Made by a program: the position numbers. DNA of 63,317 bases, filler included, from Actinomycetota bacterium (GTDB lineage Bacteria > Actinomycetota > CADDZG01 > JAHWKV01 > JAOPZY01): the NCBI GenBank assembly GCA_025963875.1. It is 6 parts of 6 records of this genome, joined end to end, with 100 filler letters (N's around TTAATTAATTAA, not from the genome) between each part and the next. Parts side by side here need not be neighbours in the genome. Positions count along the whole stretch, not along the records: positions 15,969 to 28,496 come from JAOPZY010000034.1; 5 more parts are not named here. One strand, written 5' to 3'. Positions 21,001-27,000 of the stretch are shown piece by piece (the stretch's first letter is position 1; each line of letters opens with the position of its first letter).

Positions 21001-24000
21001 GCTACCGGGACGTCGATGGCACCGTCGACCTGGGCTTTTGCGACCTGCCCCTGTTCTCCGCCCAGATCGTCGTCGATAACCTCAGCCCCACGTTGGCGGG
21101 CCTGGTTCAGCCCTATGTCGACTGGGAGGGCACCACCGCCGCACGTGACCGGATGTTGTACAACTTCGAGAACACCGATGCAGCGGTCATCACCCAAAGC
21201 GACGCCCTGGTCCAGCCCATCCCCTCGGCAGAGCTTCACACCACGGAGGCCCAGCCAGGGCGAGGCCTCGACCTGCTCGTGAACGTGCCGGTGCTGGTTG
21301 CCTTCGGCCAGCAGGACTCGGCCTGGCTTCCCGCGTGCCAGACGGCACAGGCCGGCCTCTACCTGTCGAGCCCTTCGGTGACCACATTCATCCTCCCCGG
21401 GGCGGGACACGCCCTGATGCTGCATCGCAACGCCGGCGTGTTCGAGGCCGAGCTTCTGGGATGGCTCAAAGGGCACTGAAGCTTCTTAGCTGCAGCCGGC
21501 CTTGCTGACGTCTGCGAGCTGTTTCACCAACTCCGGTGACGTCGCGAGCTGGTCGTGCCAGTTCTTCCAGGTCAAATGACTGATCCCGACGGCCCCGAGG
21601 CGGTTGTCAAGGTCCTTCGTGATGTCGGCCTCTCTCGGGAAGCTCTGCTGGTCGATCGTGCACTGACGCTTGAACTCCGCCTCCGCGATGATTCGGGTCT
21701 GGGCGTCGGCCTTGACGTTGCGGAGGATTGCGCTCTTGCCGAGGGCACCGGAGTTGCCGCAGGCGGTGAGCGCGGAAAGGAACACCACCGCGCCAGCGAC
21801 TGCCACACACGCCCGGCTGACGTTGCCTGAGAAAGGGTTAGGAGACAACCACCGTCACCTTCGCGGACACCGTCACGGGAGCCGCGGCCGTAAAGGTGAC
21901 GACGAGGGGGATGTCATAGGTGCCCGCTACGAGTCCAACCGTATTGAAACGTATGGCGACGTAGTCGGTGTCGCCTCCGATCAGGGTGGTGCCGCCACTG
22001 AGGGCGCTCGACGTCTTGTCGCTGGGATAGCCAACCTGCAGGCCAGCCGGAAGGCTGCCCAAAGTGACAGTGAAGTCGGCCAGGTCAGTGGTCCCGCCCA
22101 GGAACCAAATCTGCTGGAAGCGATCGCTGCCGGCTTTGACCGGGATGGTCGACGTGTACTGCGTGAACGCGGGCCCCGAGGCTGGCCGCACGGGCACCGT
22201 CACCGTCGCCGACGTGGTGAGATTCTGGCCGCTGCCACCGTTGCCTTGGTCGTAGACATAGGTCGTCGTGAGCGTGACCGTGAAGTCGCTGGTCACTGTG
22301 TAGGGCACCGCTAGCTTGAACGCGGTGAAGTCCCGAGTGGTGCCCACCAGCGTGCTTGAACCATAGAGCGACGTGTCCCTGCCGCCCCGGGTGGCCGGGT
22401 ACGCCATGGTGATGCCCGCCGGTGCCGTTACCGTGGTCGACCAATCCGTGACTGTATTGTCGGACGTCCACACCACCGAAAGCCATCCTGACTGACCAGG
22501 CGCGAGCGCCGCCGTGTACGGCGTGATGGCTCTCACGTTTGCGTCGTCGGCGGCGCTCGCCGAGCTGGGGGAAGCGAGAGGCAACAGCATGCCCAGCAGG
22601 GGCAGAGCAGCGAGGATCGCGAGCCGGCGACGAGGACTACACAAGGACGGCACCTTGGTCGGACTCAAGGAGCGCGATGTCGGCTCGCCGCAGAAGCCGC
22701 TCCTTGCCGGGTCCGTCCGTGGGCCACTCGGCGACCCCGACGGTAACCTCGACCGGTTCGTCGAGTACGGCGACGAGCCTTCTCAAACGCTGAGCAGCAG
22801 ACTGTGCTCCCGCCCCGCTGGTGGCGGGGAAGACCACGGCGAACTCGGCGCCCGCGATCCGGGCGGGAACATCGGCCGCGCGAATGCTCGACCGGATGGC
22901 GTCCGCCAATCGCTGCAGCTGGCGATCGCCCTCCCGGTGGCCGCGCAGCTCGTTCAGCCGTTTGAGGCCGCCGAGCTTGTAGGTGAGGACGGAGAACTTT
23001 CCTCCGGTGCGTTGCGCGCGCTCGATCTCGTTCTCGACGAGGCTGTGAAACCCGCTATAGTTCATCAGCCCGGTCAGTGCATCTGCGAAGGCGGCTGCCC
23101 TCAGGCGCCGTTGTTCGGCCAGGCTGAGTGCGCTCCGTACCAGTGGCACCAGCAACGCAGCGCCTGCCAGCAGGACGATGGCACCGTTCTCGCGGCCGTG
23201 CACGCGATGAAAGCTGCCATAGACCAGGACCATCAGGGCCGCAACCGCGAAGAAAAGGGGAGCTACCAGGGCCATGCTTGCCTCGCCGCGCTTCGCCCTC
23301 GCCGCGCCAGGATCTCGCCACGCGGCGTAGCCGATCAGGCACGCCGCCGCAAGCCAGCCGGACTCGAGCAGCGTCCCACGGGAGGAGGCGCCCTCCGCGG
23401 CCAGGTAGAGGTAGACGGAGTCGGCCGCCACCTTGATCACGAAGGCAGCGCCGACCAGAGCCCAGGCCCTGTCGGGGCGCCAGCCCATGGAGGCCACGCC
23501 GATCGCGACGACCACCAGCAGCACCAGGTCGCCGATGGGAACGACGGGATAGGCGGCCAGCATCGAGAGCGTCCCTGTGCCGTGGGCCGCGATCGACTCG
23601 CTCACGATGAAAGCCGCCAGGGCGGCCAGCGCCAGGGCGGCCCCAAGGCCGTCGAGCCAAACGATCCTGGGGCGGCCTCGCGCACGAAGCCGCAGCAGCA
23701 GCATGAGGCCGACGGCCGTGAACAGGTAGAAGCCCGCCCCTACCGCAGCGCGAATCGCTGTATGAGCCGCGCGGTCGAGTCCGTGGAGAACGAGGCCGTG
23801 GTCGAGCAAGCCGGCACCGCTCACCACCACGCCCCCGCCCAGCGCAAGCCAGGGGAGACGCTCACCCCGACCCACCCACCCCCTGGCGATACAGAAGCCG
23901 GCGGGTAGGAGGAACAGAGCGGGATAGATCCATCCGGTGAAGGCCGCGTCTCTCCCGGTGCTTCCAAGTCCCGTGATGGCATGGAGCATCGAGACTGCGA

Positions 24001-27000
24001 CGCCAGCAAGCTCCGCAGCCACGGCGATCCGCAGGACGATCCGGAACCCACGAGAAAGAAGGGGGGGCCGGCTGGTGCCACTGTTGTTGTCTCCCGGGCC
24101 GGCTGTCCGGCGGTCCGGAGCCGAACGTGGAGGCACGCTGGCCCCCGTGAGGCTCGCCGCCTCCTTCGCCAACTGGACGCTCCCGAACCCGCTCCGGCGC
24201 ATCAGCCCCCAGCGCTGCCGACGGCGGATGAGGTCCACGAGGCCGATCAGGCGAGCCACGCCCATGATCTGGCGGAAGCCGAAGTTCTCTACCACCGCGT
24301 AGGCAAGGGTGCGGCCGACCTCGCGGCCGCTGCGGTGACGGCGGAAGCTGAACTCCTCCAGGGCGACCGCGGCAATCGACAAGAGCAAGCCGAACAGGAT
24401 CGCCAGGATCAGGCCGGCCCACAGGAAGCTGGTCGAAAGCTCGCCCATGGCGACCGCGAGCGGCAGCGCCAGGTAGCCGAACAGCTCGATGACGGGCCCG
24501 AAGAGCTCGAACACCAGGAAGTATGGGAGGGCCACGAGTCCGAGCATCCCGTAGCGCGGCCTTCCGATCATCGACCGGTGGCGCCAGATCGCCTCGCCCA
24601 ACCCCCGCTGCCACCGCCGACGCTGCCGGATGAGCGTCCCCCAGTCCTCCGGCACCTCGGTCCAGCAGACCGGATGCGGAACGAACGCGATGCGGTAGTC
24701 CTCGCCACGTTTCCGCAGATAGCTGTGCAAGCGCACGACGAGTTCGACATCCTCGCCGACCGTCTCGGTCCAATAGCCGCCCACGGCCTCCAGAAACGAA
24801 CGGCGGAAGAGCCCGAAGGCGCCCGAGATGATGAGCAGCGAATCGATCTCGCTCCATCCCACCCGGCCGATGAGGAATGCGCGGAAGTACTCGACGACCT
24901 GAAGGGTCGCGAGGCGGCTCTTGGGCAGGCCCACCTCCTTCACCATCCCGTCCTCGACCCGGCAGCCGTTCGCGATCCGCACGATGCCACCGGTGGCCAC
25001 GGTCCGCTCGGGATCGTCGAGGATCGGCTTCGCCACGTAGAGCAGCGCATCCTCATCGAGCAGCGCGTCGGCATCAACCGCGCAGACGTACGGATAGCGC
25101 GCAGCATTCAGGCCGGTGTTCAGGGCGTCGGCCTTACCGCCATTCTCCTTGTCGATGACGGTCAGTTCAGGATGCCTGCGCGACATGTAGACCGTGCGGA
25201 TCGGGCGGACGGGGATGCTGTCGCGCAACACCTTGCGCACGGCGACGAGGTCGAATTCGCGCTGAAGTTTGGTCAGCGTCTCGTCGGTCGAGCCGTCATT
25301 GATGACGATGACCTCGTGCTGGGAATAGCGCAGCCTGACCAGTGACCGGACGCTCTCGATAATGCCGGCTTCTTCATTGAAGGCCGGCACAAGGACGGAG
25401 ATCGGCGGCGTCAGGGGCGAGCTGAATGCCTCGTCGGCACCGCCGTAGACCTTGGCACGCGCGTGGTGGGTCACCTGCCGCCACGCGACCGCTGTGAAGA
25501 TCAACAAGATGAGGTTCAGGACCGCGAAGTACGCCAGCACGACGATGCCGGTGACGACGAGGGCGCTGTGCAGCAAGCTCACACGGCACGCATGGCGACC
25601 AGGTCGCTCGCTTCGAGGACGTACTGCCCCGCATCCGGGTTCTCCGCGCTTGCACGCAGCGCACGCGGGTCGATGCGCGCGACGGCGGTTGCAGCCGCCT
25701 GAGCGGGATCCTGCTGGTCGTGTCGGGCCATGCCCAGCAGCGCATCGACCGCGCGCCGATCGCCGATCGCCCCCAGCGCCTCGGCTGCGACCGCGCGCAC
25801 GTAGGGGACCCGGTCGTCGAGCACCGTGCGGAGCTCCGTCGCTGCCTCGCTCGCTCCCAGCCGGCCGAGCGAGACCGCTGCCTTGGCTCTGACCTCGGCG
25901 GCGGAATCGCGAAGACGCTCAGTCAGGAGCGGCGTGTACGCAGGATCGCCGAGCACGCCGACCAGATCGATCGTCACCGCTCTGATCGCCGCCTCGGGGT
26001 GCGTTACCAGGGTCCCGAGCCCCGGCAAGCCCGCCGCCCCGATCGAGATGAGGGCCCAGCCCGCCAGGCTCCCCGGGACGGCACCGCTCACGAGCGCCTC
26101 CAGGAGTGGCTTCACGGCCTCAGGCGCCTTGAGCCGGCCCAGGCTGCAAGCGACGGCGGCCCGCACCGAGGGGTTCGGATCTTCCAGCGCCCGCAGGAGC
26201 GGAGGAACAGCTGTGGGAGAGCTCATGCCGCCGAGCGCAAAGGCGGCCGTTGCGCGCCGCCAGGGGCGACGGCCACGAAGCCCCTCCATTTCCCGCTCGA
26301 CCTCGCCCCGCGCCTCGAAGTAAGCGGCGATGTGCCCGTGCGCCGTCCCGGTCAACTGGCGGGCGTAGCGGGACAGCAGGCCTGCCAGCACCCGGATGTC
26401 ATGCTCGTCTGGCAGCGCGAACTCCCCGGCGTCGCCATCGATGATTGCGAGCGCGAGTGGCCGCAGCCGTGACTCAGCCCTGTTGCGCAGGTGCTCCTGC
26501 CGGCTCAGGTGGACCCGCCGAAGGGCAAGGACGCAGATGAAAACGACCGCGGCCACGGCGAGGCCGGCCGACCCCCACCTGAATACGTCTCCCAGCGTCA
26601 CGCCATGTGCCGACGCCGGCATCAGCGCCGCCCGAGAATGGACTGGACCCGCGCTCTCAGCTCCTGGGGGCTGAAGGGCTTCTTGATGTAGTCGTCCGCC
26701 CCTGCCTCGAAGCCGCGCGTGACATCTGCCTCTTGCACGCGGGCCGTGAGGAGGATGACGGGCATGTCGCGAGTCTCGTCGTTCGCGCGGATCTGCCGGG
26801 TGACCTCGTAGCCGTCGAGCTTGGGCATCATCACGTCCAGAATGGCCAGGTCCGGGATGCGCTCGCGGGCGAGCGTCAGCGCCTCGGCGCCGTTCGTAGC
26901 GCTGGCGACGTCGTAGTTGGCCTGCTCGAGCCGGAAGACCACCAGGTCGAGGATGTCCTCGTCGTCGTCGGCAACGAGCACAAGGGGGCGCACTCTCCCC

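Follow-up and report, generated by a model that had tools for sequence, protein, structure and literature searches.

A polysaccharide synthase fused to a degenerate GGDEF domain that may sense c-di-GMP directly

Bacterial polysaccharide synthases can carry their own c-di-GMP-binding domain or borrow one from a partner. In the accounts cited here, the cellulose synthase BcsA has a C-terminal PilZ domain (PMC8892547), while NfrB, a family-2 glycosyltransferase (GT2), ends in MshEN and is referred to as "the MshEN-domain protein" (PMC13232838; PMC8669469). Degenerate GGDEF domains that bind through the I-site also have precedent as receptors of exopolysaccharide synthases: as these sources present them, PelD of P. 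aeruginosa, PssE of Listeria and YdaK of B. subtilis are membrane-anchored and activate a separate glycosyltransferase (PMC8892547; PMC10333796; PMC5422440). GdpS of S. aureus (5TMR_LYT-GGDEF) is described as a transmembrane GGDEF protein that acts purely as a docking domain (PMC11962490). Here we describe an actinomycetotal protein that appears to be a membrane synthase with a cyclase-dead GGDEF domain as its tail; the tail seems to keep the c-di-GMP pocket and may sense the messenger directly.

The window, by which we mean the whole 63,317-nucleotide stretch of DNA that was analysed, consists of six contigs with N runs between them, and the gene lies on a contig of 12.5 kb (15969-28496). It occupies 22637-25582 on the minus strand, as do all features below, and encodes 981 amino acids arranged as a GT2 synthase, a linker, a ten-helix membrane module and a degenerate GGDEF domain. 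The ORF begins with GTG, and 4 nt of its start overlap the end of the HEAT gene upstream. Pfam places Glycos_transf_2 at residues 62-203, Glyco_tranf_2_3 at 135-327, Glyco_trans_2_3 at 166-400 and GGDEF at 831-974 (1.6e-28). These are the limits given in the initial annotation, whose motifs (DAD at 170, QRRRW at 320, RAAD at 901, AGAEF at 910) were all recovered, with exactly five residues separating D904 of the I-site from A910. Its estimate of about nine membrane helices was too low: we count about 13-14, one N-terminal, two or three after the glycosyltransferase domain and ten at 511-832. The database name "diguanylate cyclase", also recorded there, arises because TIGR00254 is the sole NCBIfam model above its cut-off for this protein.

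Is the fusion real? At least seven full-length and three junction-spanning records carry it, none of them below 85% identity: the window's own P0281 with P0002, P0003, P0283, P0287, P0290 and P0294 as distinct full-length proteins, and P0280, P0288 and L001 as partial records. P0283, a member of this cluster, ends in a spurious 241-aa read-through tail. The bearing lineage is narrow. The fusion was not found in 40 related genomes or in 150 representatives of the C-terminal (10TM-GGDEF) family. In principle, adjacent GT2 and TM-GGDEF genes might have been merged by a recent frameshift or through faulty sequencing or assembly, and the short, metagenome-assembled source contig and the tail of P0283 would fit such a history. 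However, the seven proteins and three partials, drawn from ENA, JGI and NCBI, share one continuous frame, one of these independent records sits on a 150-kb contig, and the linker of P0003 has an in-frame deletion of two residues. The independent records refute an artefactual merging of two genes, to which we give practically no weight.

The synthase module (residues 1-470, 24173-25582), supported by Pfam, homologue alignment and Foldseek, comprises one N-terminal transmembrane (TM) helix, a cytoplasmic GT-A domain and an interface helix with the QRRRW motif (320-324, 24611-24625), after which come two or three TM segments and an amphipathic helix rich in Arg. The DxD motif reads DAD (170-172, 25067-25075). 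Both motifs were located by sequence and homologue alignment, and D96, D170, D172, E277, D278, Q320, R321, R323 and W324 are invariant across 45 GT2 homologues. Foldseek ranks the Chlorella virus hyaluronan synthase first (TMt 0.62), ahead of BcsA and chitin synthases. The module is predicted to be a processive GT2 of the HAS/PgaC/BcsA kind with all catalytic motifs intact.

A low-complexity Pro/Arg/Ser linker follows (471-510, 24053-24172), which is predicted to be disordered: pLDDT falls below 50 across residues 460-543 of the AF2 model, an indel occurs there and dN/dS is 0.37. Given this disorder and a pTM of 0.50 for the full-length model, no transmission geometry can be read from it. The ten-helix module (511-821, 23120-24052), defined from sequence and model, matches no Pfam family. 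Its even-numbered loops are rich in Arg and Lys, which fits a topology with both termini inside. More than 271 representative GGDEF proteins have a homologous module at their N-terminus, and it is also found on the histidine kinase P0221; the C-terminal half of the fusion derives from a widespread 10TM-GGDEF(-HD-GYP/EAL) family. Against L001 the module shows a dN/dS of about 0.8, though from few changes (9 synonymous, 18 non-synonymous).

The degenerate GGDEF domain (822-981, 22640-23119) is supported by Pfam, PDB alignments, dN/dS and Foldseek (4urg_A, TMt 0.78). In the PDB and family alignments, K869 (22976-22978) takes the place of the Asp that binds metal in the DxD-FK motif and that at least 90% of the family conserve; the position is Lys in seven of eight clade sequences and Glu in the other. 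The sequence and the clade alignment give AGAEF for GG(D/E)EF (910-914, 22841-22855), with AGAVF, GGAEF and AGADF as further clade variants and Ala at the third position in all eight. The C-terminal YxAK region, a Lys/Arg phosphate motif, is lost and variable in the clade. From these three changes the domain is predicted to be catalytically dead and no cyclase. The guanine-contacting N877 and D886 (LN..GH..GD) are retained, as is H882.

The RAAD I-site (RxxD; 901-904, 22871-22882) is seen in the sequence, the clade alignment and wider records. Its Arg and Asp are invariant in the eight clade sequences (72-98% identity) while the x positions vary (A/S, A/T), as do positions 1 and 4 of the AGAEF motif, and all 22 records covering the region keep R..D-x5-[AG]G..F. 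R932 (22787-22789) aligns with an Arg that WspR and 5euh carry in the helix behind the GGDEF hairpin, and we take it to be the counterpart of R390 of PleD; it is Arg in seven of eight clade sequences, with one His, and in 33 of 46 family sequences. For immobilisation of the PleD type a neighbouring domain must supply another Arg site, and none was identified in the fusion. The initial description of a degenerate domain with an intact I-site thus stands on both counts, with K869, AGAEF and the lost YxAK region on one side and R901, D904 and R932 on the other. The invariance of the I-site is nevertheless weak evidence and not statistically distinctive, because 83 of the 160 columns of the clade alignment are invariant. 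Members of the wider 10TM-GGDEF family can do without RxxD: 25 of 45 relatives have it, namely all four degenerate members and 21 of 41 active-like ones. That of the fusion was inherited from active relatives, the nearest of which have the I-site as an ancestral feature. Strong purifying selection acts on the domain, whose dN/dS is about 0.07 against L001 (19 synonymous and 4 non-synonymous changes; rough binomial p = 2e-8).

The same-strand neighbours initially listed were found again. Upstream, and translationally coupled to the synthase, lies the gene at 25579-26622 for a HEAT-repeat protein (HEAT_2, 1e-41) whose N-terminus bears a TM helix; it is preceded by a single-domain receiver (26622-27008, start uncertain; domain at 26643-26981, Response_reg, 6e-32), a REC-HisKA-HATPase histidine kinase (27011-28309, true start probably downstream of 28309) and the C-terminal piece of a receiver domain (28192-28458) cut by the contig end (N run from 28497). 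Directly 3' of the synthase, overlapping its stop by 32 nt, a gene at 21838-22668 encodes a Thr/Ser-rich protein of 276 aa (GC3 0.80; 95% identical in L001), which matches nothing in Pfam or NCBIfam and whose N-terminus, by eye, resembles a signal peptide; it probably shares an operon with the synthase. The next gene (21486-21848; GC3 0.83, conserved in L001) encodes a putative lipoprotein of 120 aa, judged by eye from a Cys after a hydrophobic leader.

At 68 of 80 homologous GT2 loci there is a HEAT gene no more than 7 kb from the GT2 gene, in most cases immediately before it; at 70 a receiver gene is as near, in most cases just before the HEAT gene. About 30 of the 120 homologues listed are HEAT-GT2 fusions. 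The partners conserved across this GT2 family are a receiver and a HEAT-repeat protein. For homologous synthases of other phyla, in 22 of the 80 loci, including L004, one of the three closest, a same-strand GGDEF domain stands upstream of REC-HEAT-GT2 on a cyclase-bearing response regulator, and most of these read GGEEF and have RxxD. In four Gemmatimonadota loci the cassette GGDEF is degenerate (GGAEF, GGGDF, QGDRY, RDDEF) and has no RxxD, and a GGDEF may thus serve the synthase system without c-di-GMP. We found no paper on the REC-GGDEF(-REC)/HEAT/GT2 cassette.

The genome itself operates c-di-GMP signalling. The metagenome assembly, 94.6% complete, has about 16 GGDEF proteins, which give 18 GGDEF matches, and eight EAL matches, and no PilZ was found in it. 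In place of the seven c-di-GMP riboswitch entries first reported, four c-di-GMP-I riboswitches exceed the gathering score and one c-di-GMP-II match falls just under it.

What, then, does the fused GGDEF domain do? Our best reading, to which we give a probability of roughly 0.45, is that it senses c-di-GMP in cis. The enzyme would be a processive family-2 polysaccharide synthase embedded in the membrane, akin in type to hyaluronan synthase, PgaC and BcsA, which works with the membrane-anchored HEAT-repeat protein and is controlled by a phosphorelay via the single-domain receiver next to it. In a narrow lineage, a 10-TM + GGDEF unit from a membrane cyclase/phosphodiesterase family has been joined to its C-terminus, the GGDEF domain devoid of any catalytic or substrate-phosphate residue and retaining the allosteric product site R901, D904 and R932. 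c-di-GMP from the other cyclases of the genome would bind this site and alter the position or dimerisation of the domain, and the signal, travelling via the long helix 800-832 and the membrane bundle, would raise synthase activity; binding, direction of effect and transmission path are all inferred. A serious rival, in our view less likely, is a scaffold independent of c-di-GMP, in which the dead domain is a protein-protein module, perhaps one that pairs two synthase molecules or one that docks the receiver, the HEAT protein or some other enzyme, and RxxD is an inherited surface feature. GdpS offers a precedent, its GGDEF being described as docking DgkB (PMC11962490). The Gemmatimonadota loci and the undistinctive I-site agree with a scaffold, and purifying selection would suit any conserved interface. 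Against it, all three I-site residues are retained while the old active site drifts and the C-terminal motif varies, all four degenerate members of a family in which RxxD is optional keep it, and the genome has an active c-di-GMP network, with no PilZ found.

The membrane module could instead be the true sensor, of lipid, envelope or periplasmic cues, with the GGDEF remnant as a lever and c-di-GMP uninvolved. Its recurrence as a conserved input module of GGDEF, HD-GYP or EAL proteins and on P0221 speaks for such a relay, but the module is nearly neutral against L001 and constraint falls on the GGDEF domain, which makes the relay improbable. More doubtful still is a PdeA-type GTP sensor or residual cyclase, whose degenerate active site would bind GTP or make c-di-GMP locally: N877, D886 and H882 would allow it, but Lys at the metal Asp, the uniform Ala in the signature motif and the missing phosphate motif tell against it. 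For cis sensing by the fused domain, the dead active site, the I-site, selection, a c-di-GMP network in which no PilZ was found, the GGDEF domains beside homologous synthases and the known degenerate-GGDEF receptors all agree with the built-in receptor first proposed; its link to PelD, PssE and YdaK is not supported. Weighing against cis sensing are the ancestral I-site, the four Gemmatimonadota loci, GdpS, the lack of an identified second Arg site and, from few changes, the high dN/dS of the module that separates synthase and GGDEF domain.

If the cis-sensing reading is true, the GGDEF domain fills the role of PilZ in BcsA, of MshEN in NfrB and of PelD for PelF, which is a GT4 and not a GT2 enzyme. 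PelD, PssE and YdaK, as far as the sources describe them, resemble the fusion as TM-anchored dead GGDEF proteins with an RxxD I-site beside an exopolysaccharide glycosyltransferase. In those systems the glycosyltransferase is separate, whereas here it shares one polypeptide with the GGDEF domain. The GGDEF-side module has ten TM helices, unlike PelD and YdaK with about four each, and Pfam finds no counterpart of the GAF domain of PelD. PelD is absent among the 56 PDB sequence matches of the fusion, and no kinship with PelD-type receptors was seen; PssE and YdaK were likened by description. The initial idea of a "Rosetta stone" for such pairs does not hold, since the nearest relatives of the C-terminal half are 10TM-GGDEF proteins with or without HD-GYP/EAL and the GT2 partners are receiver and HEAT-repeat proteins. 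GdpS likewise places a polytopic membrane module before a GGDEF domain, and its function is reported to be independent of catalytic residues; it works without c-di-GMP in a host not known, on that account, to make it, whereas the genome of the fusion has many cyclases, phosphodiesterases and riboswitches (PMC11962490).

On the synthase side, D, DxD, ED and QxxRW are conserved as in PgaC/IcaA, NodC and the hyaluronan synthases, and the best solved structures are the Chlorella virus and Xenopus HAS. The top NCBIfam match, PgaC_IcaA (149.6 bits, cut-off 422.3), and NodC (39.6, cut-off 550) both stay below their cut-offs, so the module is an equivalog of neither, and the HEAT-repeat protein stands where PgaC/IcaA has PgaD. 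The cassettes of Bacillaceae, Gemmatimonadota, Salinibacter and others have a homologous GT2 (40-63% identity), the same HEAT and receiver partners and a GGDEF physically tied to the synthase genes. Their GGDEF is encoded upstream on a response regulator and usually reads GGEEF, whereas that of the fusion is of another lineage, degenerate and fused. In the accounts available, BcsA and NfrB share with the fusion a processive GT2 followed by a C-terminal c-di-GMP domain, predicted in our case, and the logic of gating in cis. BcsA also matches the GT2 part in fold (Foldseek). Both rely on PilZ or MshEN, neither of which Pfam detects in the fusion, while the latter would use a GGDEF domain set apart from the synthase by the disordered linker and a further ten TM helices.

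The fusion gene reads from 25582 to 22637 on the minus strand of the window (981 codons, GTG start), within a 12.5-kb contig (window 15969-28496; G000:C180 in the source genome), and a 4-nt overlap links its start with the stop of the gene upstream. The window is assembled from six contigs with N runs between them (15869-15968, 28497-28596, 38014-38113, 51398-51497 and 58129-58228), and neighbourhoods are not readable across these joints. Pfam places GT2 models over residues 62-400 of the protein and a GGDEF domain at 831-974 (E = 1.6e-28), with the motifs DAD at 170, QRRRW at 320, RAAD at 901 and AGAEF at 910, which confirms the domains and motifs of the initial annotation; that annotation left the strand unstated, and its count of about nine membrane helices rises here to about 13-14, from the sequence and the AF2 model. 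The database name of the protein, diguanylate cyclase, arises because a generic GGDEF domain model of that name is the only NCBIfam model to exceed its cut-off. This name is wrong: the protein is a synthase, and its cyclase domain is dead.

The GT2-GGDEF fusion is real and an artefact is excluded. The frame runs unbroken across the junction in six distinct full-length proteins (P0002, P0003, P0283, P0287, P0290 and P0294; 85-97% identity) besides the window's own protein (P0281), and three partial sequences (P0280, P0288 and L001) also span it. These records come from ENA, JGI and NCBI, one of them on a 150-kb contig. In P0003 an in-frame deletion shortens the linker by 2 residues, and the P0283 record reads through into a tail of 241 residues in a non-coding frame.

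The N-terminal half has the hallmarks of a membrane-embedded processive glycosyltransferase. The UDP-binding D, the DxD, the catalytic (T/G)ED and a QxxRW on an interface helix are all present, and an alignment of 45 homologues shows no variation at D96, D170, D172, E277, D278, Q320, R321, R323 and W324. In the AF2 model (pLDDT mostly 80-95 over residues 60-190 and 63-89 over 190-450, with dips to 55 at 201-210 and 301-310) the GT domain is flanked by TM helices and adopts a fold like that of solved synthases. The best solved structure in a Foldseek search is the Chlorella virus hyaluronan synthase (8snc_A; E = 2e-12, TMt 0.62), followed by BcsA and then chitin synthases (Chs1). The best NCBIfam model for this half is PgaC_IcaA (TIGR03937), with 149.6 bits against the curated equivalog cut-off of 422.3. 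Residues 1-470 form a membrane-embedded processive GT2 of the class of BcsA, HAS, PgaC, NodC and chitin synthase, and this half is a member of the class and the equivalog of no named synthase. Signalling modules are fused to this GT2 family elsewhere: the close homologues P0004 and P0007 (62-65% identity) continue into C-terminal HAMP-GAF-HisKA-HATPase-REC modules and P0037 (49% identity) into CheA-like modules, all three being synthase-kinase fusions of about 1340-1540 aa. HEAT repeats are fused to a GT2 of the same family in about 30 among the 120 matches listed.

A Pro/Arg/Ser linker, disordered in the AF2 model (pLDDT below 50 over 460-543), leads to ten helices at 511-832 and then to the GGDEF domain; the full-length model has a pTM of 0.50, so that its inter-domain geometry is unreliable. 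Arg/Lys-rich loops follow every second helix of the ten-helix module, which fits an N-in, C-in topology and would therefore place the GT and GGDEF domains both in the cytoplasm. No family matches the module (window 23120-24052, minus strand) in Pfam at E up to 1. A search with residues 500-981 against 1.84 billion representative proteins returned at least 271 representatives at E < 1e-30, and in almost all of the best 150 of these the 10-TM and GGDEF unit is N-terminal. The units scanned with Pfam either stand alone (about 465 aa) or continue into HD-GYP or EAL, and the module heads at least 271 representative clusters (GGDEF, HD-GYP, EAL) and one histidine kinase (P0221). Conserved motifs of the module (proteins P0123-P0271) include ER..W, P.PS.AD..WL.FYP, WLDG, AYP.GDL.LL and GWRP. 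Seven representatives in which the unit lies deep inside a longer protein (P0149, P0174, P0229, P0243, P0262, P0271 and P0172) were considered as further GT2 fusions and rejected, as all were scanned and none has a GT2. All but P0172, whose N-terminal extension has no assignment, contain two GGDEF stretches, and two of those six also have an EAL. The six are consistent with tandem duplications of the 10TM-GGDEF unit; such apparent duplications include P0149, P0174, P0229 and P0262, and two are followed by EAL.

How far has the GGDEF domain drifted from a cyclase? The window protein reads YKLGGLK, RAAD, AGAEF and LESD where its nearest relatives (P0123-P0131; 35-44% identity) read DLDGFK, RxxD, GGDEF and YAAK. 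The acidic third residue of GG(D/E)EF is gone, position 3 being Ala in all eight sequences of the fusion clade (72-98% identity over the domain), and the motif itself drifts among them (AGAEF in five; AGAVF, GGAEF and AGADF in one each). The metal Asp of D-x-D-x-FK, at least 90% conserved in a 46-sequence family alignment, is replaced by K869. The C-terminal Lys/Arg phosphate contacts are likewise missing, with LESD in place of the YxAK of the family, and the C-terminal motif is variable within the clade.

The inhibitory site has fared differently. An RxxD stands five residues before the GGDEF position (R901-A-A-D904, x5, A910), as in degenerate-GGDEF c-di-GMP receptors of the PelD, PopA and BcsE type, and the pattern RxxD-x5-[AG]G..F is kept in 22 of 22 records that cover the region. 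R901 and D904 are invariant in the clade (8/8) and the two x positions vary; this invariance alone is weak evidence, because 83 of 160 alignment columns are invariant in these eight sequences. A second arginine in the following helix, R932, lies at the alignment position of the helix Arg in WspR and 5euh, and 7 of the 8 clade sequences and 33 of the 46 family sequences have R there; we take it to be the counterpart of PleD R390 and PelD R402. Across the wider 10TM-GGDEF family an RxxD can be present or absent (25 of 45 relatives have one), and all four degenerate members have kept it. An alignment with HD-GYP relatives had suggested a new gain of the I-site by the fusion lineage, which is rejected as the closer relatives P0123-P0131 carry RxxD; by this comparison the site is inherited.

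Selection has acted on the domain. Against L001, a partial copy of the fusion (96% identical), its dN/dS is 0.07 (19 synonymous and 4 non-synonymous changes), compared with 0.15 for the C-terminal part of the GT2; in the TM module the ratio is about 0.8 (9 synonymous, 18 non-synonymous). A rough binomial for the GGDEF domain yields p = 2e-8. On this evidence the domain is functional, it cannot be a cyclase, productive GTP binding is unlikely, and a predicted product-binding site is retained.

The fusion is restricted to a narrow uncultured lineage. Of the 120 listed matches to the whole protein, P0002 and P0003 alone carry GT2 and GGDEF on one chain. A check of 40 related genomes, which share the source genome's genus (2), family (3), order (21) or class (14), turned up no copy of the fusion; G001 and G002, the same-genus pair, are among the 40, as are the unpublished G028 and G038. 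In the ESM Atlas, which covers clusters of at least 50 members, no fused cluster was found, the nearest being GT2-only or GGDEF-only with scores of at most 0.85. The MAGs that carry near-identical proteins (cluster members P0280, P0283 and P0287) bear the labels Chloroflexota (L001), Actinomycetota and Solirubrobacteraceae; among GT2 relatives, the closest belong to Thermoleophilia and Gaiellaceae. The conflicting labels may reflect mis-binning of the short contig or a patchy distribution of the gene. A GT2-GGDEF fusion is undescribed in the literature searched, a scope outside which lie subscription journals and InterPro architecture tables.

Upstream of the synthase and on the same strand lie, in this order, a TM-anchored HEAT-repeat protein, a single-domain receiver and a REC-HisKA-HATPase kinase, followed by part of a receiver that is truncated where the contig ends. 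Immediately downstream (window 21486-22668, minus strand) comes an apparently secreted 276-aa Thr/Ser-rich protein, whose N-terminus by eye resembles a signal peptide, and next to it a putative lipoprotein of 120 aa. Neither has a family match; both genes are conserved in L001 and could encode polymer-handling or surface components. The same contig carries an 878-aa AAA_16-LuxR (GerE) regulator (window 17526-20162, plus strand) and a GAF-GAF-HisKA_3 kinase (window 15917-17254, minus strand) that reaches the contig end. An Rfam scan of the contig found no riboswitch near the operon, which is itself cut at the contig end, and a promoter and terminator scan returned nothing informative. In the source MAG (3.84 Mb, 94.6% complete) about 16 proteins account for 18 GGDEF matches, and there are 8 EAL matches; at this completeness no PilZ was found in it. 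Four c-di-GMP-I riboswitches exceed the threshold and one c-di-GMP-II falls just under it, rather than the seven first counted, and two of the four form a tandem pair on contig C126 (42765-42852 and 43841-43927).

The arrangement of receiver, HEAT and GT2 genes extends well beyond this lineage. It was followed in 80 loci of species-representative genomes from many phyla, those with the best GT2 homologues (40-63% identity); the near-identical L001 is one of the 80. Of these loci, 68 have a HEAT gene within 7 kb of the GT2, 70 have a receiver in that range, 40 have a histidine kinase and 24 have a GGDEF, and in most loci the receiver is directly upstream of HEAT and HEAT directly upstream of GT2. 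The cassette ranges over Bacillaceae, Gemmatimonadota, Acidobacteriota, Actinomycetota, Salinibacter, Marinimicrobia and other groups (loci L002-L080), its receiver often taking the form Hpt-REC-GGDEF-REC, with examples at L036:9272-13415, L010:1852-5913, L004, L037, L077 and window 25579-27008. A same-strand upstream GGDEF adjoins the receiver of the cassette in 22 of the 80 loci, including L004, which is among the three closest. In five loci the protein scanned is a single REC-GGDEF or REC-GGDEF-REC chain, two of them with Hpt, and L077 has GAF-PAS-GGDEF-EAL in place of such a chain. Most cassette GGDEFs read GGEEF with RxxD. Four loci from Gemmatimonadota/Longimicrobiales (L037:9422-10867, L052, L058 and L080:9455-10897) have degenerate forms (GGAEF, GGGDF, QGDRY and RDDEF) without RxxD, which suggests a non-catalytic, c-di-GMP-independent role for these domains. 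The cassette is conserved and apparently undescribed, as no paper on it was found in the literature searched, which excluded subscription journals.

Why would a synthase carry a dead cyclase on its own chain? The best reading, to which we give a probability of about 0.45, is that of the initial annotation: the GGDEF domain may be a c-di-GMP receptor acting in cis, as the dead cyclase site and the kept RxxD support. In this mechanism c-di-GMP would be sensed by the fused domain and would act on the synthase within the same chain, and the axis of phosphorelay, receiver and HEAT would be an ancestral second input. Alternatively, the dead domain could have a scaffold or docking role independent of c-di-GMP. 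GdpS provides a precedent in the available text of PMC11962490, and the degenerate Gemmatimonadota cassette domains that lack an I-site point the same way; we consider this the main rival, though an unlikely one. Relay of a membrane signal through the ten-helix module is improbable, and a GTP sensor or residual cyclase more improbable still. A complex prediction of GT2 (1-470) and GGDEF (822-981) with two c-di-GMP scored 0.00 (mark 0.32) and has no bearing either way. The receptor reading, carried to its full extent, would make this the first polysaccharide synthase with a degenerate GGDEF as built-in c-di-GMP receptor, one chain with three inputs (c-di-GMP at the I-site, phosphorelay signals from the neighbouring receiver and its HEAT partner, and perhaps a membrane cue sensed by the ten helices), and the cassette a new exopolysaccharide system controlled by phosphorelay and c-di-GMP. 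This wider proposal is tentative, rather doubtful as a whole.

How c-di-GMP controls synthase-dependent exopolysaccharides is a question at the centre of biofilm biology. In the literature consulted, the receptors named for such control are PilZ, MshEN, the interface of PgaCD, and degenerate-GGDEF proteins on a chain of their own. If the receptor reading is true, a degenerate GGDEF on the synthase's own chain would offer a compact system for following how I-site occupancy activates a glycosyltransferase, because no second subunit would need reconstituting. The cassette may matter more than the fusion, since it represents a GT2 family almost always accompanied by receiver and HEAT, and often by a cyclase-bearing response regulator, in many phyla; part of the interest of the fusion is the unstudied cassette to which it points.

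Functionally, the fusion resembles BcsA-PilZ and NfrB-MshEN, where a receptor is fused to the GT2 (available text of PMC8892547 and PMC13232838), and PelD, PssE and YdaK, in which an I-site receptor of the degenerate-GGDEF kind works beside a glycosyltransferase (available text of PMC8892547, PMC10333796 and PMC5422440). Unlike the PilZ- or MshEN-gated synthases (BcsA, Alg44, NfrB), the protein has GT2 and GGDEF as its only Pfam domains. PelD proteins combine TM, GAF and degenerate GGDEF in a pel operon with PelF, a GT4, whereas the fusion has no GAF match and its partner is a GT2; PelD is not among its PDB sequence matches. The initial reading is supported in part, its 'Rosetta stone' view of the GGDEF-receptor/glycosyltransferase pairs finding no support. 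The nearest relatives found for the TM and GGDEF unit are 10TM-GGDEF(-HD-GYP/EAL) proteins. With PilZ, MshEN and GAF absent and a different GGDEF lineage, the fusion belongs neither to the BcsA/NfrB group nor to the PelD family, and probably not with PssE and YdaK either.
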